A stretch of DNA of 64,000 nucleotides from Thermoanaerobaculia bacterium (GTDB lineage: Bacteria; Acidobacteriota; Thermoanaerobaculia; Gp7-AA8). The translations under genes were made by a program, and so were the position numbers. The stretch's first letter is position 1, and each line of letters starts with the position of its first letter. The stretch spans positions 46,838 to 110,837 of the forward strand of contig JBAZBK010000010.1 of the NCBI GenBank assembly GCA_041671505.1. Direction: 5' to 3'. The notes below the pieces were generated by a model. That model was given only the letters and a program-made list of their open reading frames with translations, ran no database searches and was not told the origin of the DNA. Below, one piece after another: positions 19,979 through 64,000 of this stretch.

Positions 19979-20341
19979 ATGGAACAGCCTCGCATCGATC
20001 TCTGGCTTAAGCACGTCTGCCTCGTCAAACACCGGGCGGAGGCGACGGAGGCGTGCCGCGGCGGCCTCGTCAAAGTCAACGGCCAGCGCGCGAAACCAGC
20101 CTCCGTCGTGCGGCTCGACGACGTCGTGGAGCTGACCGAGCCGCACTACCGGAAGGTCGTCGTCCTCGCCATCCCGTCGAAGCAGGCCTCGAAGGAAGAA
20201 TCGCGCTCGATGTTCCGTGACGAGACACCTGCGCCGGAACCCGCTGCGACGCGCCGCCTTGGGATCGAGCGCGACGACGGCGCGGGCCGCCCGACCAAGC
20301 GCGAGCGTCGCGAGATCGAAAAATGGCGCGGACGCGAATGA
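19979..20341 (+). CDS. S4-domain RNA-binding protein (Hsp15/HslR-like ribosome-associated heat-shock protein)
   Basis: RIDLWLKHVCLVKHRAEATEACRGGLVKVNGQRAKPASVV is S4/Hsp15-like. Confidence 0.7.
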   Translation: MEQPRIDLWLKHVCLVKHRAEATEACRGGLVKVNGQRAKPASVVRLDDVVELTEPHYRKVVVLAIPSKQASKEESRSMFRDETPAPEPAATRRLGIERDDGAGRPTKRERREIEKWRGRE

Positions 20342-20373
20342 CGTCGCGCCAGACATCGCAGCCAGCGCGCGCA

Positions 20374-20643
20374 TGTAGCCAGGGCGTCCCGCCCTGGCCC
20401 CCTGATCCCACAAGCGTCGAATCACCACGCTACGGGGGCAAAGGCCGGAGGCCTTTGCTACAGGGCTGACGCGGTGCTCGATGCCGAAGCTCGAGTTTGC
20501 CTCATGTAGCCAGGGCGTCCCGCCCTGGCCCCCGTTCCCGGGCGAGGCTGGATCACCTCGCAACGGGGGCAAAGGCCGGAGGCCTTTGCTACAGGGACCG
20601 CATCATCCCGCCACGCGTGCAAAGGCCGGAGGCCTTTGCTACA
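20374..20643. repeat. REP/BIME-like cluster: five GTAGC-headed GC-rich hairpins in alternating orientation
   Basis: tgtagccagggcgtcccgccctggcc occurs at 20374-20399 and 20505-20530 (a 30-bp exact repeat). The reverse-orientation unit gcaaaggccggaggcctttgctaca occurs at 20438-20462, 20569-20593 and 20619-20643. Lies between convergent hsp15-like and pheS. Confidence 0.6.
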
Positions 20644-20654
20644 AGGCCGACCGC

Positions 20655-21686
20655 TCAGAACTGGCGTAATACGCGCAGGTCGTTCTCGAAGAGCGTCCGG
20701 ATGTTAGGCATCCCGAACTTGATCATCGCCACGCGGTCGATGCCGAGCCCGAACGCGAAGCCGCTCCATTCGTTCGGATCGATGTCGCAGTTCCGGAGCA
20801 CCTGTGGGTGGATCATCCCGCAGCCGAGAATCTCCATCCATCCCGTCTTCGAGCAGGTGCCGCAGCCCGCGCCGCGACAGAAGGGACACGAGATGTCGAC
20901 CTCCGCCGAAGGCTCGGTGAAAGGAAAGTAACTCGGCCGGAACCTGATCTCCGTATCGGGGCTGAAGACGCGCCGCATGAAGTGCTCGAGCGTCCCGCGG
21001 AGATGTCCGAAGTGGACGCCTCGGTCGACGAAGAAGCCTTCCACCTGGTGGAACATCGGCGAGCGCCGGAGCGTGATCTCGTCGCGCCGGTAGACGCGGC
21101 CGGCGGAGAGAACCTTGAAGGGAGGCTGTCCCTTTTCCATCGTCCTGATCTGGACGTTCGACGTGTGCGTCCGAAGCAGCAGCTCCGGCCCGAGGTAGAA
21201 GGTGTCCTGCGTGTCGCGGGCGGGATGGTCGGGGGTGAAGTTCAGCCCCTCGAAGTTGTACCAGTCGGTCTCGATCTCCGGTCCCGGATCGATCGAATAG
21301 GCCATCTCGCGGAAGATCTGCTCGATCTCGCGGCGGACGAGCGTGATCGGGTGAAGCGAGCCGAACGCCGGCTTCCTCCCGGGGAGCGTGACGTCGATCG
21401 ACGAGCGCGCCTGCTTGCGCGCAGCCTCTTCGACCGCCGACGCTTCGAGCTTCTCGCGAAGGCGTGACTCGAGCGAGTCGCGAAGGAGATTGAGCTGCTC
21501 GCCGACTTCCTTCTTCCTCTCGGCGGGGACCGACTTGAGCTCCGCGAAGAGCGCGGGGACGACGCCCCCCTTGCGGCCGAAGAAGCGCACGCGAAGAGCT
21601 TCGAGGTCGGCGTGGGACGTCGACGCGGCGAGCGCCTCGTCGAACTCGCGTTCGGTGGTGCGGATCGAGTCGAGCATGTCGGTCAA
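20655..21686 (-). CDS. pheS: Phenylalanine--tRNA ligase alpha subunit
   Basis: Class II aaRS motifs and the conserved C-terminus ...FGLGIDRVAMIKFGMPNIRTLFENDLRVLRQF. Confidence 0.9.
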   Translation of the reverse strand: MTDMLDSIRTTEREFDEALAASTSHADLEALRVRFFGRKGGVVPALFAELKSVPAERKKEVGEQLNLLRDSLESRLREKLEASAVEEAARKQARSSIDVTLPGRKPAFGSLHPITLVRREIEQIFREMAYSIDPGPEIETDWYNFEGLNFTPDHPARDTQDTFYLGPELLLRTHTSNVQIRTMEKGQPPFKVLSAGRVYRRDEITLRRSPMFHQVEGFFVDRGVHFGHLRGTLEHFMRRVFSPDTEIRFRPSYFPFTEPSAEVDISCPFCRGAGCGTCSKTGWMEILGCGMIHPQVLRNCDIDPNEWSGFAFGLGIDRVAMIKFGMPNIRTLFENDLRVLRQF

Positions 21687-25309: not shown

Positions 25310-25386
<77 letters not shown>

Positions 25387-25407: not shown

Positions 25408-25484
25408 TGGTAGGCGCTATCGGACTCGAACCGATGACCTCTACCGTGTGAAGGTAGCGCTCTAACCAGCTGAGCTAAGCGCCT
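25408..25484 (-). tRNA. tRNA-Val (anticodon CAC)
   Basis: Near-identical scaffold to the adjacent tRNA. Acceptor stem AGGCGCT/AGCGCCT, anticodon loop TTCACAC, encoded CCA. Confidence 0.85.
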
Positions 25485-31720: not shown

Positions 31721-32974
31721 ATGGCAAAGATCTCGTTTTTTGGTGTTGACGGGGAGGAGAAGAGCTACACGCTGCATCCGCAGCTGACGCTCCGAGTAGG
31801 ACGAGATCCCGGCAACGATGTCGTACTTCGCGACCCGAAGGTTTCGCGAAGGCACGTGGAGATTGTGTTCGAGCGCGGTTTCTTCGTACTCCACGACCTC
31901 CAGAGCGCGAACGGCACCTACGTCAACGGAATCCGCGTCAACGTCGCCCCGCTCACGAACGGCGCCGAGCTCAAGCTCGGAGGCAGCCACGCTCGTTTCA
32001 TCGACGAAGCGGAGGTGCCGGCGCACCGGGCGACGGCACCCGCGGCCGAGCCCGCAGCACCAGTCCGGCGGCAGACCGCCGAGATTCCCCCGGAGCAGCT
32101 CGAAGGGACGTTTCCGCACGACAAGGCGAGCAACCGCGCGGCTGCGCCCGTGGCGGGGCCGACCTCGAAGGAGCCTCGCGTCCGGGACGACACCGCGCTC
32201 ATCGAAGAGCAGCAGGACGACACGCCGATCCCCGACAAGAAGCGCGAGTCGCTCGACGCCGACGCCCTCGCGGGCGCGAAGCTCGACGTCGAAGCCGACG
32301 TGCCGTGGGGCGAGGTCGTCTCGGTCCGCGACCAGGGCTCGGTGGCGCGCTTTCACTACCGCAGGATCTTCAACGTCGTGGCGATCGTCGCCGCGATCAT
32401 CGCGAGCCTCGTCCTCTTCGCCGGCAGCATCGTGGCGGCATTCCTCGCGGTCGAAAAGCAGTCACTGCTCGCCGCGATCGCCGTCACGCTCACGCTCCTC
32501 TTCACCGGAGGGATCCTCCTTCTCGTTCCGAAGCGCCACGTCCTCATCTTCGGCGACGAGGCGCTCTCGCAGCTCGCGCTCGCGATCAGCGAGGAGTCGA
32601 TCTTCGGCCTTCCGATCGTGACGTTTCGCGTTCGCCTCGCCGACGGCTCGACCGTCGGCTACCTGACGAAGAACGCGCTCGTCGGCATCGTGAAGCGCCG
32701 CTGGAACTTTCTCGACCCCGATCGCCGCGAGGTCGGCTTCGCGCTCGAGCAGGGCGTCGGCCGTCCGATCCTCCGGAAGCTCCTCGGTGATTTCTTCGGC
32801 CTCCTGACGACCGACTACGCGCTGCTGCTCCCCGGCGGCGTTCGCTGCGGCACGTATCGCCGTCGGCAGCCCCCCGGCACCGCGCGGCGCATCGAGCTCC
32901 CGTCGAGCCGCCCCGACCCGCGCCTCGCCCTCGCCTTCGCGCTCCTCGTCGACTCGCTCGAGAAGTCGCGTTAG
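31721..32974 (+). CDS. FHA-domain membrane protein with a C-terminal Tubby-C/scramblase-like (LURP-one-related) domain
   Basis: N-terminal FHA domain (TLRVGRDPGNDVVLRDPKVSRRHVEIVFERGFFVLHDLQSANGTYVNG), a disordered linker, 2 TM helices, then ...FRVRLADGSTVGYLTKNALVGIVKRRWNFLDPDRREVGFALEQ... Start at ATG 31721 (MAKISFFG). Confidence 0.6.
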   Translation: MAKISFFGVDGEEKSYTLHPQLTLRVGRDPGNDVVLRDPKVSRRHVEIVFERGFFVLHDLQSANGTYVNGIRVNVAPLTNGAELKLGGSHARFIDEAEVPAHRATAPAAEPAAPVRRQTAEIPPEQLEGTFPHDKASNRAAAPVAGPTSKEPRVRDDTALIEEQQDDTPIPDKKRESLDADALAGAKLDVEADVPWGEVVSVRDQGSVARFHYRRIFNVVAIVAAIIASLVLFAGSIVAAFLAVEKQSLLAAIAVTLTLLFTGGILLLVPKRHVLIFGDEALSQLALAISEESIFGLPIVTFRVRLADGSTVGYLTKNALVGIVKRRWNFLDPDRREVGFALEQGVGRPILRKLLGDFFGLLTTDYALLLPGGVRCGTYRRRQPPGTARRIELPSSRPDPRLALAFALLVDSLEKSR

Positions 32975-37578: not shown

Positions 37579-38298
37579 CTACACCCACTTGCCCGATACG
37601 TTCCTGCGGTAGTCGTCGGCGTCGACCACGACCCGCTCCGCCATCTCGAAGAGCCTGCTACGGAGCCGCTTGCCGATCCGCGTCTCGAGCGACTCTTCCT
37701 TCGGGTCGCGCGGCTCGTCGAGGTAGTTCGTCGTGAAGATCGTCGTCCGCTGCTCGTTGTAGCGCGTGTTGATGATGTAGTAGAGCATGTCCTGCACGAA
37801 GAGCGTCGGCTTCTGCGAGCCGAGCTCGTCGAGCACGAGCAGGTCGGCCGTCAGGATCGGCTCGAGGATCTCCGAGCGGCTCGGCGCGTGGTCCGAGTCG
37901 ATCGACGCGAGAATCTCCTGGATGAGATCCTGGAAGTTCGAAAAGAGAAGCCGCCCCGGCTTCCCTTGCGCAATGATCTCGAGAAGCGCCGCCACGGCGA
38001 GGTGCGTCTTCCCCGAGCCGCACGGCCCCATGAGCAGCAGTCCCCGCTCGGCCATCGGCCACTCGTCGACGAGCCGCGCGATGCGGCGCTTCGCCGAGGC
38101 GAGGGACGGGTTGTTCCGTTCGTGAAATCCCGCGAGCGTGCAGTGCGGCTTGTAGCGCGCGGGGATCTGCGCGTTCTCCCGCTTGAGCGTCCGCCTCATG
38201 TCGGACTGGCAGTTGCAGGGACGCACGTTGAACGTCCCCGGCTCGGGAACCCATCCGGAACCGTTGCAAACCTCGCAGGTCGTCACCACCGTGTCCAC
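37579..38298 (-). CDS. DnaC/DnaI/IstB-family AAA+ ATPase with N-terminal zinc-ribbon
   Basis: N-terminus CEVCNGSGW...PCNCQ (Cys4), Walker A LLLMGPCGSGKTHLAVA, Walker B LLVLDELG, and sensor/arginine finger residues. Confidence 0.7.
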   Translation of the reverse strand: MDTVVTTCEVCNGSGWVPEPGTFNVRPCNCQSDMRRTLKRENAQIPARYKPHCTLAGFHERNNPSLASAKRRIARLVDEWPMAERGLLLMGPCGSGKTHLAVAALLEIIAQGKPGRLLFSNFQDLIQEILASIDSDHAPSRSEILEPILTADLLVLDELGSQKPTLFVQDMLYYIINTRYNEQRTTIFTTNYLDEPRDPKEESLETRIGKRLRSRLFEMAERVVVDADDYRRNVSGKWV

Positions 38299-38336
38299 GG
38301 CCGGATGATACCACCCGCGCGCGGGGCCTCGAGGGG

Positions 38337-38590
38337 GCGGGCGGGGCAGGAAATGTGGAATCCGGAATGCGGTCCGCGGAACGAAAACCGAAATGTAGAA
38401 TGTCGAATGTTGAATGGAGAATGTAGAAAGGGGATTCGAAGACTGGGACCGGAGATTGGGAACGCACGCCGATAGCCGTGGACGCTGACTATTTCAACCG
38501 CGCGAGCGCTTCTCCATTCGACATTCTTCATTCGACATTCTTCATTTCGGTTTTCGTTCGCACTCTGCATCCCGCATTCCGCACGCCGCC
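38337..38590. repeat. 254-bp foldback element with xxGAATG heptad arms (subtype C)
   Basis: Left arm ggcggggcaggaaatgtggaatccggaatgcggtccgcggaacgaaaaccgaaatgtagaatgtcgaatgttgaatggagaatgtagaaagggg. The right arm is its imperfect reverse complement (...cttctccattcgacattcttcattcgacattcttcatttcggttttcgttcgcactctgcatcccgcattccgcacgccgcc). It fills almost the whole 336-bp divergent intergenic region. Confidence 0.55.
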
Positions 38591-42150: not shown

Positions 42151-42486
42151 GTAGCCCCCGACTTCGGTCGGGGGTGGATGGCGACGCGCCAACGACGCGC
42201 CGCGTAGCGCCGCCGGAAATCATGATTCGTCCCTCGCGCACGAGGCGAGCGTCAGCTCGCATAGGCCGCGCCAGCGGCCGAGAGATGCGTAGCCCGGCCC
42301 GTCAGGGCCGGGTTGAGGCGAGAGGAGTTTGCGCGAGCCGCGTAAGCGGCGACAGAACGGCGCGGCGTGTCTTCACACGCGATGCGCATCTGTCGCCGCT
42401 CACGCGGCTCGATGACGCGCTCGCCGTGCGAATCCGGACCCTTACGGGTCCGGCTACCCATCTCTAAGGCGGACCCTGACGGGTCC
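42151..42486. repeat. REP-like hairpin cluster (GTAGCC-headed)
   Basis: gtagcccccgacttcggtcggggg (42151-42174), gtagcccggcccgtcagggccggg (42288-42311), and the reverse-orientation ccggacccttacgggtccggctac (42434-42457). Additional hairpins ggccgcgccagcggcc and ggaccctgacgggtcc. Confidence 0.5.
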
Positions 42487-43062
42487 CCCCGCTCCCCTCA
42501 CTTCTTGTCCTCCGCCGGGATCGGCGCCCGCCGGCACCCCGATCTCGTATTCGCTCTGAACCGCACCACCGGGGAGCTCGCGCGTCGCAACGTGTTTGAG
42601 CCGGATGTCGGAGTCGACGCCGCCGAAGAGCGAAATGCCGGCGCCGACGAGGACTGGGACGCGTGTGATCACGACCCGGTCGACCAGGCCGGCGCGCAGG
42701 AACTGCTGGATCGTCACGCCTCCGTCGACGTACACATGCTCGAAGCCGCGACCCGCGAGCCGCGACAGCACCTCGGCGGGTGCGCCCGCGATCTGCTCGA
42801 CGACCGCGCCCCGAGGAGACGGAGGAAGCGGCCTGCTCGTGAGAATGAAAACGGGAGTGAGACCGTATGGCCACTCGGGGAACGGGAGAACGACCTCGTA
42901 GGTGTTGCGCCCCATCAGAACGGCGTCGACCGTCGAAAAGAACTCATTGAAGCCGTTGGAGGCGCCGTCACCGTCGCTCCCCGCGGTCAGGAAGTCGAAC
43001 GTGCCGTCGGGTCTGGCGATGAAGCCGTCGAGGCTCGCGCCGACGAAGACTGAGGTTCTCAT
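42454..43062 (-). CDS. RibD C-terminal-domain (dihydrofolate-reductase-like) family protein
   Basis: MRTSVFVGASLDGFIARPDGTFDFL...VYVDGGVTIQQFL... is the RibD_C/YwjB family. The last ~25 codons run into a REP hairpin. Confidence 0.65.
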   Translation of the reverse strand: MRTSVFVGASLDGFIARPDGTFDFLTAGSDGDGASNGFNEFFSTVDAVLMGRNTYEVVLPFPEWPYGLTPVFILTSRPLPPSPRGAVVEQIAGAPAEVLSRLAGRGFEHVYVDGGVTIQQFLRAGLVDRVVITRVPVLVGAGISLFGGVDSDIRLKHVATRELPGGAVQSEYEIGVPAGADPGGGQEVRGAGGPVRVRLRDG

Positions 43063-57107: not shown

Positions 57108-57212
57108 GACTTTTCGAGGCCCCGCGATGCTGAGTTGCGGGGCCTTGGTGTATTCGGGCGATTTCGTGCGGCGGATGGAACTCGTTCCGCGAGATCTTCG
57201 CTGGATCGACGT

Positions 57213-57581
57213 CAGCGTTCGTCCGCGAAAACCGAAATGTCGAATGTCGAATGAGGAATGAAGAATGGAGAAACAAGGCCCGTCGCATTGACCCTTTCTT
57301 CATTCTTCATTCGACATTCGACATTCGACATTTCGAATTCTCGACCCCCTGCACCGACCTCGCCGATCGCCGAACGCACGCACGGCCCGCCTGAACAAAA
57401 CTCAGCGTTCGTCCGCGAAAACCGAAATGTCGAATGTCGAATGAGGAATGAAGAATGGAGAAACGAGGCCCGCCGCATTGCCCCTTTCTTCATTCTTCAT
57501 TCGACATTCGACATTCGACATTTCGAATTCTCGACCCCCTGCACCGACCTCGCCGATCGCCGAACGCACGCACGGCCCGCC
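57213..57581. repeat. Tandem 190-bp duplication, each unit containing a subtype C/D foldback hairpin (xxGAATG heptads)
   Basis: Unit 1 is 57213-57402 and unit 2 is 57403-~57581, near-identical. Each unit has cgaaaaccgaaatgtcgaatgtcgaatgaggaatgaagaatggagaaa ... tttcttcattcttcattcgacattcgacattcgacatttcgaattctcg. Hairpins at 57226-57343 and 57416-57533. Lies between convergent genes. Confidence 0.6.
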
Positions 57582-57645
57582 ATCAAAGAACAAAGGCCCC
57601 TTTCCGCTCACGCAGAAAGGGGCCGGGATTCAAGACTGACTTCGG

Positions 57646-62414: not shown

Positions 62415-62513
62415 CCGAAGTTAGAAGTTAGAACGTTGAATGTTGAATCCAGAAAGGCCTGAGCGGCTTCTTTTCTGGGTTCAAAACTCAACGTTCTAAC
62501 TTCTAACTTCAGG
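62415..62513. repeat. Foldback hairpin, subtype E copy 3
   Basis: ccgaagttagaagttagaacgttgaatgttgaatccagaaagg cctgagcggcttc ttttctgggttcaaaactcaacgttctaacttctaacttcagg. Confidence 0.55.
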
Positions 62514-62577
62514 TTTTCCTGCGTGAACTCACCGCCGTTGAGTCTGACCCAGCGGCGGAGGCGGGACGCCTCCGCCA

Positions 62578-64000
62578 CTACCTGATGAACTCCTTGAGCC
62601 GGTCGACGTGCTCCTGTGTCGTCGCGCCGTTGCCGATTGCGACGCGAAGCACGTAGTGCCCCCTCAGCCTCGTCTGCGACACGAAAGCCTTCCCCGACTC
62701 GTTGATCGCCGTCATCAGCGCCTCGTTCGCCCGCTCCGAGGCCTCCTCGTCGACGCTGCCGTCGGCGCGCCTCACAACCCTGCGGAAGACGACGACGGAG
62801 AACGACTGCGGCGCGGCGAGCTCGTACCCCGGCGTCGACTCGATGAATCTCGCGAGTCCCTCCGCGAGCTCGACGTGCGACGCGATCACTTCGCCGAGCT
62901 TCGCCGTGCCGTAGTGCGAGAGGACGAGCCAGAGCTTCAGCGCGCGGAAGCGACGGCCGAGTTGCAGGCCGTAGTCCATGTAGTTGATGACCTCGCTCTC
63001 GGCCGTCTTCAGGTAGTCGGGAACGAGCGAGAAGGTCTCCTTGAGCATGTCGGGCCGCCTGGTCCAGAGCACGCTGCAGTCGACCGGCGTGAAGAGCCAC
63101 TTGTGCGGGTTCACGACGATCGAGTCGGCGTCCTCGATGCCGTTCCAGATCCAGCGGAAGCGCGGATGGATCGTCGCGGAGCCGCCGTAGGCACCGTCGA
63201 CGTGCAGCCAGATGCCGTGACGCTTCGTGATCGCCGCGATCTCCGCCACCGAGTCGACCGCCGCGGTCGAGGTCGTGCCGACCGTGCACGAAACCGCCAC
63301 CGGCTTCACTCCCGCCGCGATGTCTTCCTCGATCGCGTGCGACAGCGCCCGCACGTCCATGCGGAACGCCTCGTCGGCGAGGATCTTGCGCACCCCGCGC
63401 GCGCCGAACCCGAGGGCCAGCGCCGCCTTCTCGATCGAGGAGTGCGACTGGTCGCTGCAGTAGACCCGCATCTGCGGCAGCTCGCGCCCGGTCATGCCGA
63501 GCTCGCGGATGTTGAGCCCGGTCGCCTCGCGTGCCGCCGCGAGCGCGAGGTACGAGTTGATCGACGCCGTGTCGTTGATGATTCCGAAGAGCCCGTCGGG
63601 AAGCCCGAGCGCCTTGCGCAGCCAATCGAGCACCGTCGTCTCGAGCTCGGTCACCGACGGCGATGTCTTCCAGAGCATGCCGTTGAGGTTGAGCGCCGCG
63701 GAGAGCATTTCGCCCAGCACGCCTGCGCGCGAGCCGGTGATCGCGAAGTAGGCGAAGAAGGCGGGGTGGTTCCAGTGCGTCACGCCGGGGAGGACCTTCT
63801 CCTCGAACTCGACGAGGAGATCCTCGAGCGGGCGGCCTTCGCGCGGCGCTTCACCGTCGAACGCCGCGGCGATCTCGCCCGGCTTCGACCGCGAGAGCAC
63901 CGGGTACTTGCCGACGTTGTCGAGATAGTCGGCCATCCAGTCGACTGCTCGATGCGCCGTCGCGCGGAATTCGCTGCTGTCGACCTCGAGAACCTTGTCA
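62578..64000 (-). CDS. PLP-dependent group II decarboxylase (aromatic-L-amino-acid/tyrosine decarboxylase family), 5' end beyond window
   Basis: ...HVDGAYGGSA..., NPHKWLFTPVDCSVLW (PLP-Lys region), and the conserved N-terminal ...EFRATAHRAVDWMADYLDNV continuing past position 64000. Confidence 0.8.
   Translation of the reverse strand, partial: DKVLEVDSSEFRATAHRAVDWMADYLDNVGKYPVLSRSKPGEIAAAFDGEAPREGRPLEDLLVEFEEKVLPGVTHWNHPAFFAYFAITGSRAGVLGEMLSAALNLNGMLWKTSPSVTELETTVLDWLRKALGLPDGLFGIINDTASINSYLALAAAREATGLNIRELGMTGRELPQMRVYCSDQSHSSIEKAALALGFGARGVRKILADEAFRMDVRALSHAIEEDIAAGVKPVAVSCTVGTTSTAAVDSVAEIAAITKRHGIWLHVDGAYGGSATIHPRFRWIWNGIEDADSIVVNPHKWLFTPVDCSVLWTRRPDMLKETFSLVPDYLKTAESEVINYMDYGLQLGRRFRALKLWLVLSHYGTAKLGEVIASHVELAEGLARFIESTPGYELAAPQSFSVVVFRRVVRRADGSVDEEASERANEALMTAINESGKAFVSQTRLRGHYVLRVAIGNGATTQEHVDRLKEFIR

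Follow-up and report, generated by a model that had tools for sequence, protein, structure and literature searches.

GTAG-type repetitive extragenic palindromes in a BIME-like cluster between convergent genes of a Thermoanaerobaculia bacterium

Five repeat units at 20374-20643 of a 64-kb stretch of DNA (the window, meaning the whole stretch that was analyzed) were identified as GTAG-type repetitive extragenic palindromes (REPs) in a BIME-like arrangement. The window comes from the metagenome-assembled genome (MAG) of a Thermoanaerobaculia bacterium (Acidobacteriota; 65% GC; RodA, MFA6956461.1). The identification, which had been proposed in the original prediction, was supported by two inverted subtypes, dispersal of the family in a related genome, empty orthologous spacers and compensatory stem changes. 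In the history to which we give moderate confidence, a dimer of GTAG REPs was inserted at this site and then amplified locally, with the units moved by a REP-associated tyrosine transposase (RAYT) encoded elsewhere.

Sequence and setting of the units

All five units were found at their predicted places. Each was 29 nt long and was made up of TGTAGC, a 9-bp stem and a 3-nt TCC loop (5/5 units). The predicted stem and loop were confirmed, but the stem does not follow a complete (T)GTAGC: the GTAG head was present in 5/5 units, and its last G is base 1 of the stem. Type A units, TGTAGCCAGGGCGTCCCGCCCTGGCCCCC, lie on the + strand at 20374-20402 (A1; TGTAGC, stem CAGGGCG, loop TCC, tail GCCCCC; covariance model score 42.7 bits) and 20505-20533 (A2, same sequence as A1). 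Type B units, TGTAGCAAAGGCCTCCGGCCTTTGCCCCC, lie on the - strand at 20434-20462 (B1; TGTAGC, stem AAAGGCC, loop TCC, tail GCCCCC; 39.3 bits), 20565-20593 (B2, same sequence as B1) and 20615-20643 (B3, type B with the tail GCACGC, 11 nt away from the pheS stop). The two types differ at 6 positions, which form 3 compensatory stem pairs. The original prediction had counted two forward and three reverse units correctly and had missed the two sequence subtypes; the exact repeat that holds A1 and A2 measured 31 nt rather than 30 (20372-20402 = 20503-20533). Unit order across the cluster was A> B< A> B< B<, so that orientation alternates as predicted until the last B<, which breaks strict alternation. 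Folded singly as single-stranded DNA, the units gave -10.2 to -12.2 kcal/mol (z -2.7 to -6.6 versus shuffles), and the separate unit hairpins were retained when the whole spacer was folded. Chance expectation per 29-mer at up to 3 mismatches was 0.00 in shuffled sequence.

The A and B units are paired in 89-bp dimers with outward-facing GTAG heads, a REPIN-like arrangement. Dimer 1 (A1> B1<; 20374-20462) has a 31-nt spacer and arms, one of each subtype, that are 81% complementary; its layout is what Di Nocera, De Gregorio and Rocco (2013, PMC3733652) call an 'HH' dimer. Dimer 2 (A2> B2<; 20505-20593; 89 bp, heads outward) is a diverged copy of dimer 1 lying 131 bp downstream, the two 31-nt spacers sharing 62% identity versus 44% for shuffled spacers.

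The units occupy an intergenic spacer of 313 bp (20342-20654) between an S4-domain, Hsp15-like gene (19979-20341, +) and pheS (phenylalanyl-tRNA synthetase alpha subunit; 20655-21686, -), a convergent pair as had been predicted. Annotation of 54 window open reading frames (ORFs) with Pfam returned housekeeping genes and no transposase of any family. Downstream of thrS, two tandem tRNA genes were observed 25 nt apart (25313-25386 and 25411-25484, -); the pair are alike, one tRNA of the relative L047 matching both at 93.6%.

The association of the GTAG head with a hairpin is not due to chance. A perfect hairpin of at least 7 bp beginning within 0-2 nt after GTAG was found at 10/318 window sites (3.1%), compared with 0.29 (maximum 2) in dinucleotide shuffles. 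Control tetramers gave 0-4 hairpin sites in 16/17 cases, the exception being CGAG (11/1,822 sites, 0.6%). The ten GTAG sites comprised the five cluster units, one at 62554-62581, three at 42151-42457 and one at 32639-32662, the last of which is intragenic and probably fortuitous.

The site at 62554-62581 (-) is a solitary TCC-loop REP, GTAGTGGCGGAGGCGTCCCGCCTCCGCC (covariance model score 37.2 bits). The upstream pyridoxal-dependent decarboxylase gene takes its stop codon from the TAG in this head, and a near copy of GTAGTGGCGGAGGCGTCCCGCCTCCGCC was located at L013 3837 (+) in the MAG JBPPMG01. With this unit, the TCC-loop family numbers six units at two sites in the 64 kb, as scored with a covariance model built from 10 variants whose training alignment contained all six strong window matches. 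The spacer just downstream of the solitary REP also holds an AT-rich inverted repeat (62417-62510) with 23-nt arms, GAAGTTAGAAGTTAGAACGTTGA and TCAACGTTCTAACTTCTAACTTC.

The three sites at 42151-42457 form a second GTAG-hairpin cluster of different design (GTAGCC, 8-bp stem, tetraloop), with units at 42151-42174 (+), 42289-42312 (+) and 42434-42457 (-). The stem differs in each of the three units, and the region, 42151-42490, is BIME-like. Its neighbors on the two sides, purC and a RibD_C-domain gene, are convergent, and the TAG stop of the latter forms part of the third GTAG head (42434-42457). A hairpin similar to these units (TTAGCCCCCGGTC...) was found in the S4-pheS spacer of the relative L056.

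Placement was extragenic throughout the REP sites: five units between the convergent S4 gene and pheS, the others at the RibD_C and decarboxylase stops. At 3/3 window sites (A1 and B3; the GTAGCC-tetraloop cluster; the solitary unit at 62554-62581) the outermost units have a sense-oriented GTAG head next to the neighboring gene's stop codon, and in two cases, the RibD_C and decarboxylase genes, the head's own TAG supplies the stop.

A repeat family separate from the REPs was also recorded. Two AT-rich palindromes of ~112 nt with GAATG/CATTC-like short repeats (57229-57341 and 57419-57531) are part of a tandem duplication of 190 bp (57210-57399 and 57400-57589), half a copy was found at 38499-38553, and a copy in a related MAG (L016 1094-1207) was 78-79% identical.

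The S4-pheS site in relatives and dispersed copies

The same arrangement of genes, with hup and S4 followed by convergent pheS-rplT-rpmI-infC-thrS, was present on related contigs from metagenomes and MAGs, and the S4-pheS spacers were compared. The site was empty in four relatives, with spacers of 9 bp (L043-L046), 6 bp (L047, MAG JBPPMG01), 6 bp (L054/L055) and 4 bp (L057/L058). A fifth, L056, has a spacer of 114 bp with unrelated hairpins. In L040/L041, the closest relatives (DNA identity to the window 86.5% in S4, 92.6% in pheS and 93.9% in hup), the spacer is 145 bp and carries one A> B< dimer together with a 17-nt partial duplicate of the A head; the 313-bp spacer of the window carries A B A B B. 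The insertion postdates the split from L043, L054 and L056.

These three states of one site, namely 4-9 bp and empty, one dimer, and five units, point to insertion followed by local amplification. In the simplest history, a dimer was inserted into a 4-9-bp spacer in the ancestor shared by the window lineage and that of L040, and in the window lineage it was then duplicated locally to yield A B A B B. The flanks of B3 match those of the single B unit of L040, of which B3 is probably the orthologue. At L040 11960-11995, a 17-nt partial tandem duplication of REP A's 5' half (ACATGTAGCCAGAGCGT ACATGTAGCCAGGGCGT) immediately precedes the intact unit and is a sign of local slippage at REPs.

The family was also found away from this site. 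MAG JBPPMG01 (GCA_051305935.1), empty at the S4-pheS site, was found with the exact-core pattern to carry heads-out dimers of this family on at least four other contigs (loci L012, L013, L015 and L016). Their left unit is TGTAGGCAAGGC[G/C]TCC[C/G]GCCTTGCC (variant GTAGCCAGGGCCTCCGGCCTTGGC in L012) and their right unit is type B. Head-to-head dimer length was 82-83 bp in JBPPMG01 versus 87 bp from GTAG to CTAC in the window (89 bp with the flanking T and A). Presence at different loci in different genomes is the behavior to be expected of mobile DNA. Doublet orientation and length were kept among the dispersed dimers and their spacer sequences were unrelated, which is not expected of a recently replicating REPIN. 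A further REP family was seen in JBPPMG01 (GT[AG]GCGCAGRCACTCYTGYCTGCGC; 8-bp stem, 4-nt loop), also in heads-out dimers (L012 3618/3705 and L013 2393/2507).

Ten sequence variants from all genomes were aligned for stem conservation. Paired bases filled 98.9% of stem cells, a percentage that is partly circular, the variants having been preselected for no more than 1 unpaired position. The compensatory changes are not subject to this circularity: 5/9 pairs were changed on both sides, which supports selection on stem structure as the probable cause of the pattern. In the head, only the third base varied over the 10 variants (A or G), its G, T and final G being invariant, as were the TCC loop and the two G-C/C-G pairs closest to the loop.

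Candidate means of spread

In E. coli, TnpA-REP recognizes a hairpin with its GTAG foot in single-stranded DNA, which it cleaves and rejoins. By analogy, the A and B units may be substrates of a RAYT, a Y1/HUH enzyme that would be encoded elsewhere in the genome. Such an enzyme would bind the hairpin of the single-stranded top strand, read the GTAG foot, and cleave and rejoin DNA so as to seed new copies; the cluster would then have grown by local duplication or recombination. Transcripts of the two convergent genes would carry the units in their 3' UTRs, where the hairpins could stabilize the RNA or help end transcription.

A Y1/HUH transposase was not found in the window and 51 related loci, 464 kb in all (the 64-kb window and ~400 kb of related sequence). 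Over this set, tblastn with E. coli RayT detected no homologue, and nothing was returned by regular expressions matching class 1-3 HUH and Y motifs or by an HMM built from 119 RayT homologues, a narrow model in that the homologues among the matches listed were all enterobacterial. The positive control for a REPtron was a Chloroflexota plasmid RAYT, which was flanked on both sides by GTAGGGTGCGC REP dimers. One ORF with a domain of IstB_IS21/DnaA-type ATPases was observed alone at 37582-38493 (-; 55.7 bits) without an adjacent IstA-like transposase, and probably encodes a DnaC-like loader and not a component of an IS21 element.

The main rival to a RAYT acting from elsewhere in the genome is that the units are orphan REPs, the cognate RAYT having been lost or never present in the lineage, and that they spread solely by host recombination, replication slippage and selection on the 3'-UTR hairpins. 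The empty RAYT search is what this reading predicts, although the search covered less than 2% of a typical genome, and loss of RAYTs from genomes that keep REPs has been reported (PMC3733652; Quentin et al. 2018, PMC6006769). Copy number is low, at the six units and two sites counted above, and the diverged spacers of the dispersed dimers suggest old copies; the insertion, on the other hand, came after the divergence from L043, L054 and L056, and the identity of A1 with A2 and of B1 with B2 indicates recent copying. Local slippage has left signs in the 17-nt A-head duplicate of L040 and the 131-bp repeat of the window. On balance, orphan REPs were considered a possible but distinctly less probable explanation.

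A further reading was raised by copies of the core in other phyla. A degenerate core pattern was scanned against species-representative genomes (16 loci) and metagenomes (21 loci). The type A 24-nt core, GTAGCCAGGGCGTCCCGCCCTGGC, was found identical at more than 20 sites in MAGs of Chlamydiae/Parachlamydiaceae of 36-50% GC (mostly 40-45%; loci L005, L010, L014, L017 and L019-L039). Chlamydiae copies, GTAGCCAGGGCGTCCCGCCCTGGCTAC, carry GTAG and CTAC at their two ends, and the core there is mostly a 'double-foot' palindrome within a longer conserved hairpin (...GAAGCAAGAAG GTAGCC..GGCTAC CTTCTTGCTTC...). A variant with one compensated pair, GTAGCAAGGGCGTCCCGCCCTTGC, is dispersed in Verrucomicrobiota MAGs (loci L002-L004, L006-L009, L011, L021, L022 and L024). 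No RAYT was seen in the Chlamydiae or Verrucomicrobiota core loci; a reading by eye of the ORF translations between two REPs of the chlamydial locus L038 gave a phosphoglycerate-mutase-like protein, a small membrane protein and no trace of a transposase. From these sequence matches it could be proposed that one REP family crossed phyla with its RAYT, or that a conserved host factor has this hairpin as its fixed target, so that the element would be a cross-phylum one and not a repeat specific to a lineage; both forms together were regarded as rather unlikely.

Movement of miniature elements by a transposase other than a RAYT (an IS200/IS605 TnpA or a member of an unrelated family), with the GTAG head a coincidence, was held to be very unlikely. 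It would accommodate the failure to see a RAYT in the window and 51 related loci, and class 3 Y1 proteins, with other foot sequences, have been placed in Acidobacteria (PMC6006769). The foot of all variants, however, is GT[AG]G, the signature of RAYT-linked REPs and not the class 3 CnGA foot; comparison of the filled with the empty site shows no terminal inverted repeats or target-site duplications; and the window itself, as noted, holds no transposase of any family.

That the hairpins evolved in the host, in place, as 3'-end structures (terminators or mRNA stabilizers) and are not mobile DNA, as their position between convergent genes and the sense-oriented outermost heads beside stop codons, two of them supplying the stop, might suggest, was judged the least credible explanation and scarcely tenable, since the 24-nt core also occurs at unrelated loci and in other genomes, four relatives have a spacer of only 4-9 bp so that the empty versus filled comparison disfavors it, and a T-tract is absent.

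Several other classes of element were tried and rejected. A CRISPR or tandem array was ruled out by the lack of a regular period and by mixed orientation, and intrinsic terminators by the lack of a T-tract and of any terminator match in the spacer. Rfam returned nothing at gathering score, which ruled out a known RNA family; at E values up to 1 its sole match was a spurious miRNA precursor (20.8 bits versus a threshold of 90). Neither an integron attC site nor IS ends with terminal inverted repeats were evident when the filled and empty sites were compared. The core was not found in viral contigs or plasmids, and a phage or plasmid origin was ruled out on this ground.

Relation to described repeat systems

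The kind of repeat is already known; to judge by the searchable literature, its occurrence in Thermoanaerobaculia is new. GTAG REPs (24 families) have been found in all classes of Proteobacteria and in Cyanobacteria, Chloroflexi and the PVC group (PMC3733652), so the design is no surprise in a high-GC genome outside the gammaproteobacteria. In the same survey, Acidobacteria had only transposases flanked by terminal inverted repeats (TIRYT). GT[AG]G REPs have been tied to RAYT subclasses 2.2, 2.4, 2.5, 2.7 and 2.8 (PMC6006769), and neither the TIRYT nor the class 3 Y1 type has been tied to GTAG REPs (PMC3733652; PMC6006769). Heads-out dimers of GTAG REPs 20-100 bp apart, clusters between convergent genes and REPtrons in which REPs flank a RAYT have all been described (PMC3733652; PMC6006769).

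The closest likeness is to the GTAG-REP superfamily (PMC3733652), with which the window units share a terminal GTAG, a stem within the 6-13-bp range and a loop within the 2-3-nt range, subfamilies that differ by complementary stem changes, clusters, dimers with outward heads set 20-100 bp from each other, and a tendency to lie downstream of genes, at convergent and unidirectional gene ends. The difference is the host phylum, Acidobacteria; the likeness was drawn from the description of the superfamily. The core strings were not found in the supplements of PMC3733652 or in the searchable literature.

E. coli BIMEs (Y and Z REPs; RayT/TnpA-REP, 4ER8) likewise have two inverted subtypes in an intergenic cluster with GTAG at the hairpin base. 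The window stems, in contrast, are short and perfect (9 bp, no bulges), the linkers are not of conserved types, the cluster ends in two type B units, and no homologue of E. coli RayT was detected in the window. With the REPINs of Pseudomonas fluorescens (Bertels and Rainey 2011, PMC3116915) the window dimers share an inverted doublet of near-constant length that is dispersed. They differ in that the arms are of different subtypes (the 81% complementarity given above) and each folds alone instead of joining in one long hairpin; the spacers of dispersed copies are unrelated, and copy number appears far lower here. The Chlamydiae core copies, with GTAG and CTAC ends, are like the 'double-foot' REPs of RAYT subclass 2.4 (PMC6006769), whereas the window units have a single foot and a GCCCCC tail.

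Aside from its host lineage and the history of its site, the repeat belongs to an ordinary class. With it, the range of GTAG-type REPs comes to include Thermoanaerobaculia (Acidobacteriota), a phylum without GTAG REPs in PMC3733652 and PMC6006769. A single orthologous site observed empty, with one dimer and with an amplified cluster constitutes a clean natural experiment, one that shows the birth of a BIME-like cluster between convergent essential genes. Should the cognate RAYT come to light, types A and B would be a ready substrate pair for determining what a RAYT reads, the candidates being the invariant head (GT.G), the TCC loop and the GC pairs nearest the loop, against a freely covarying stem.
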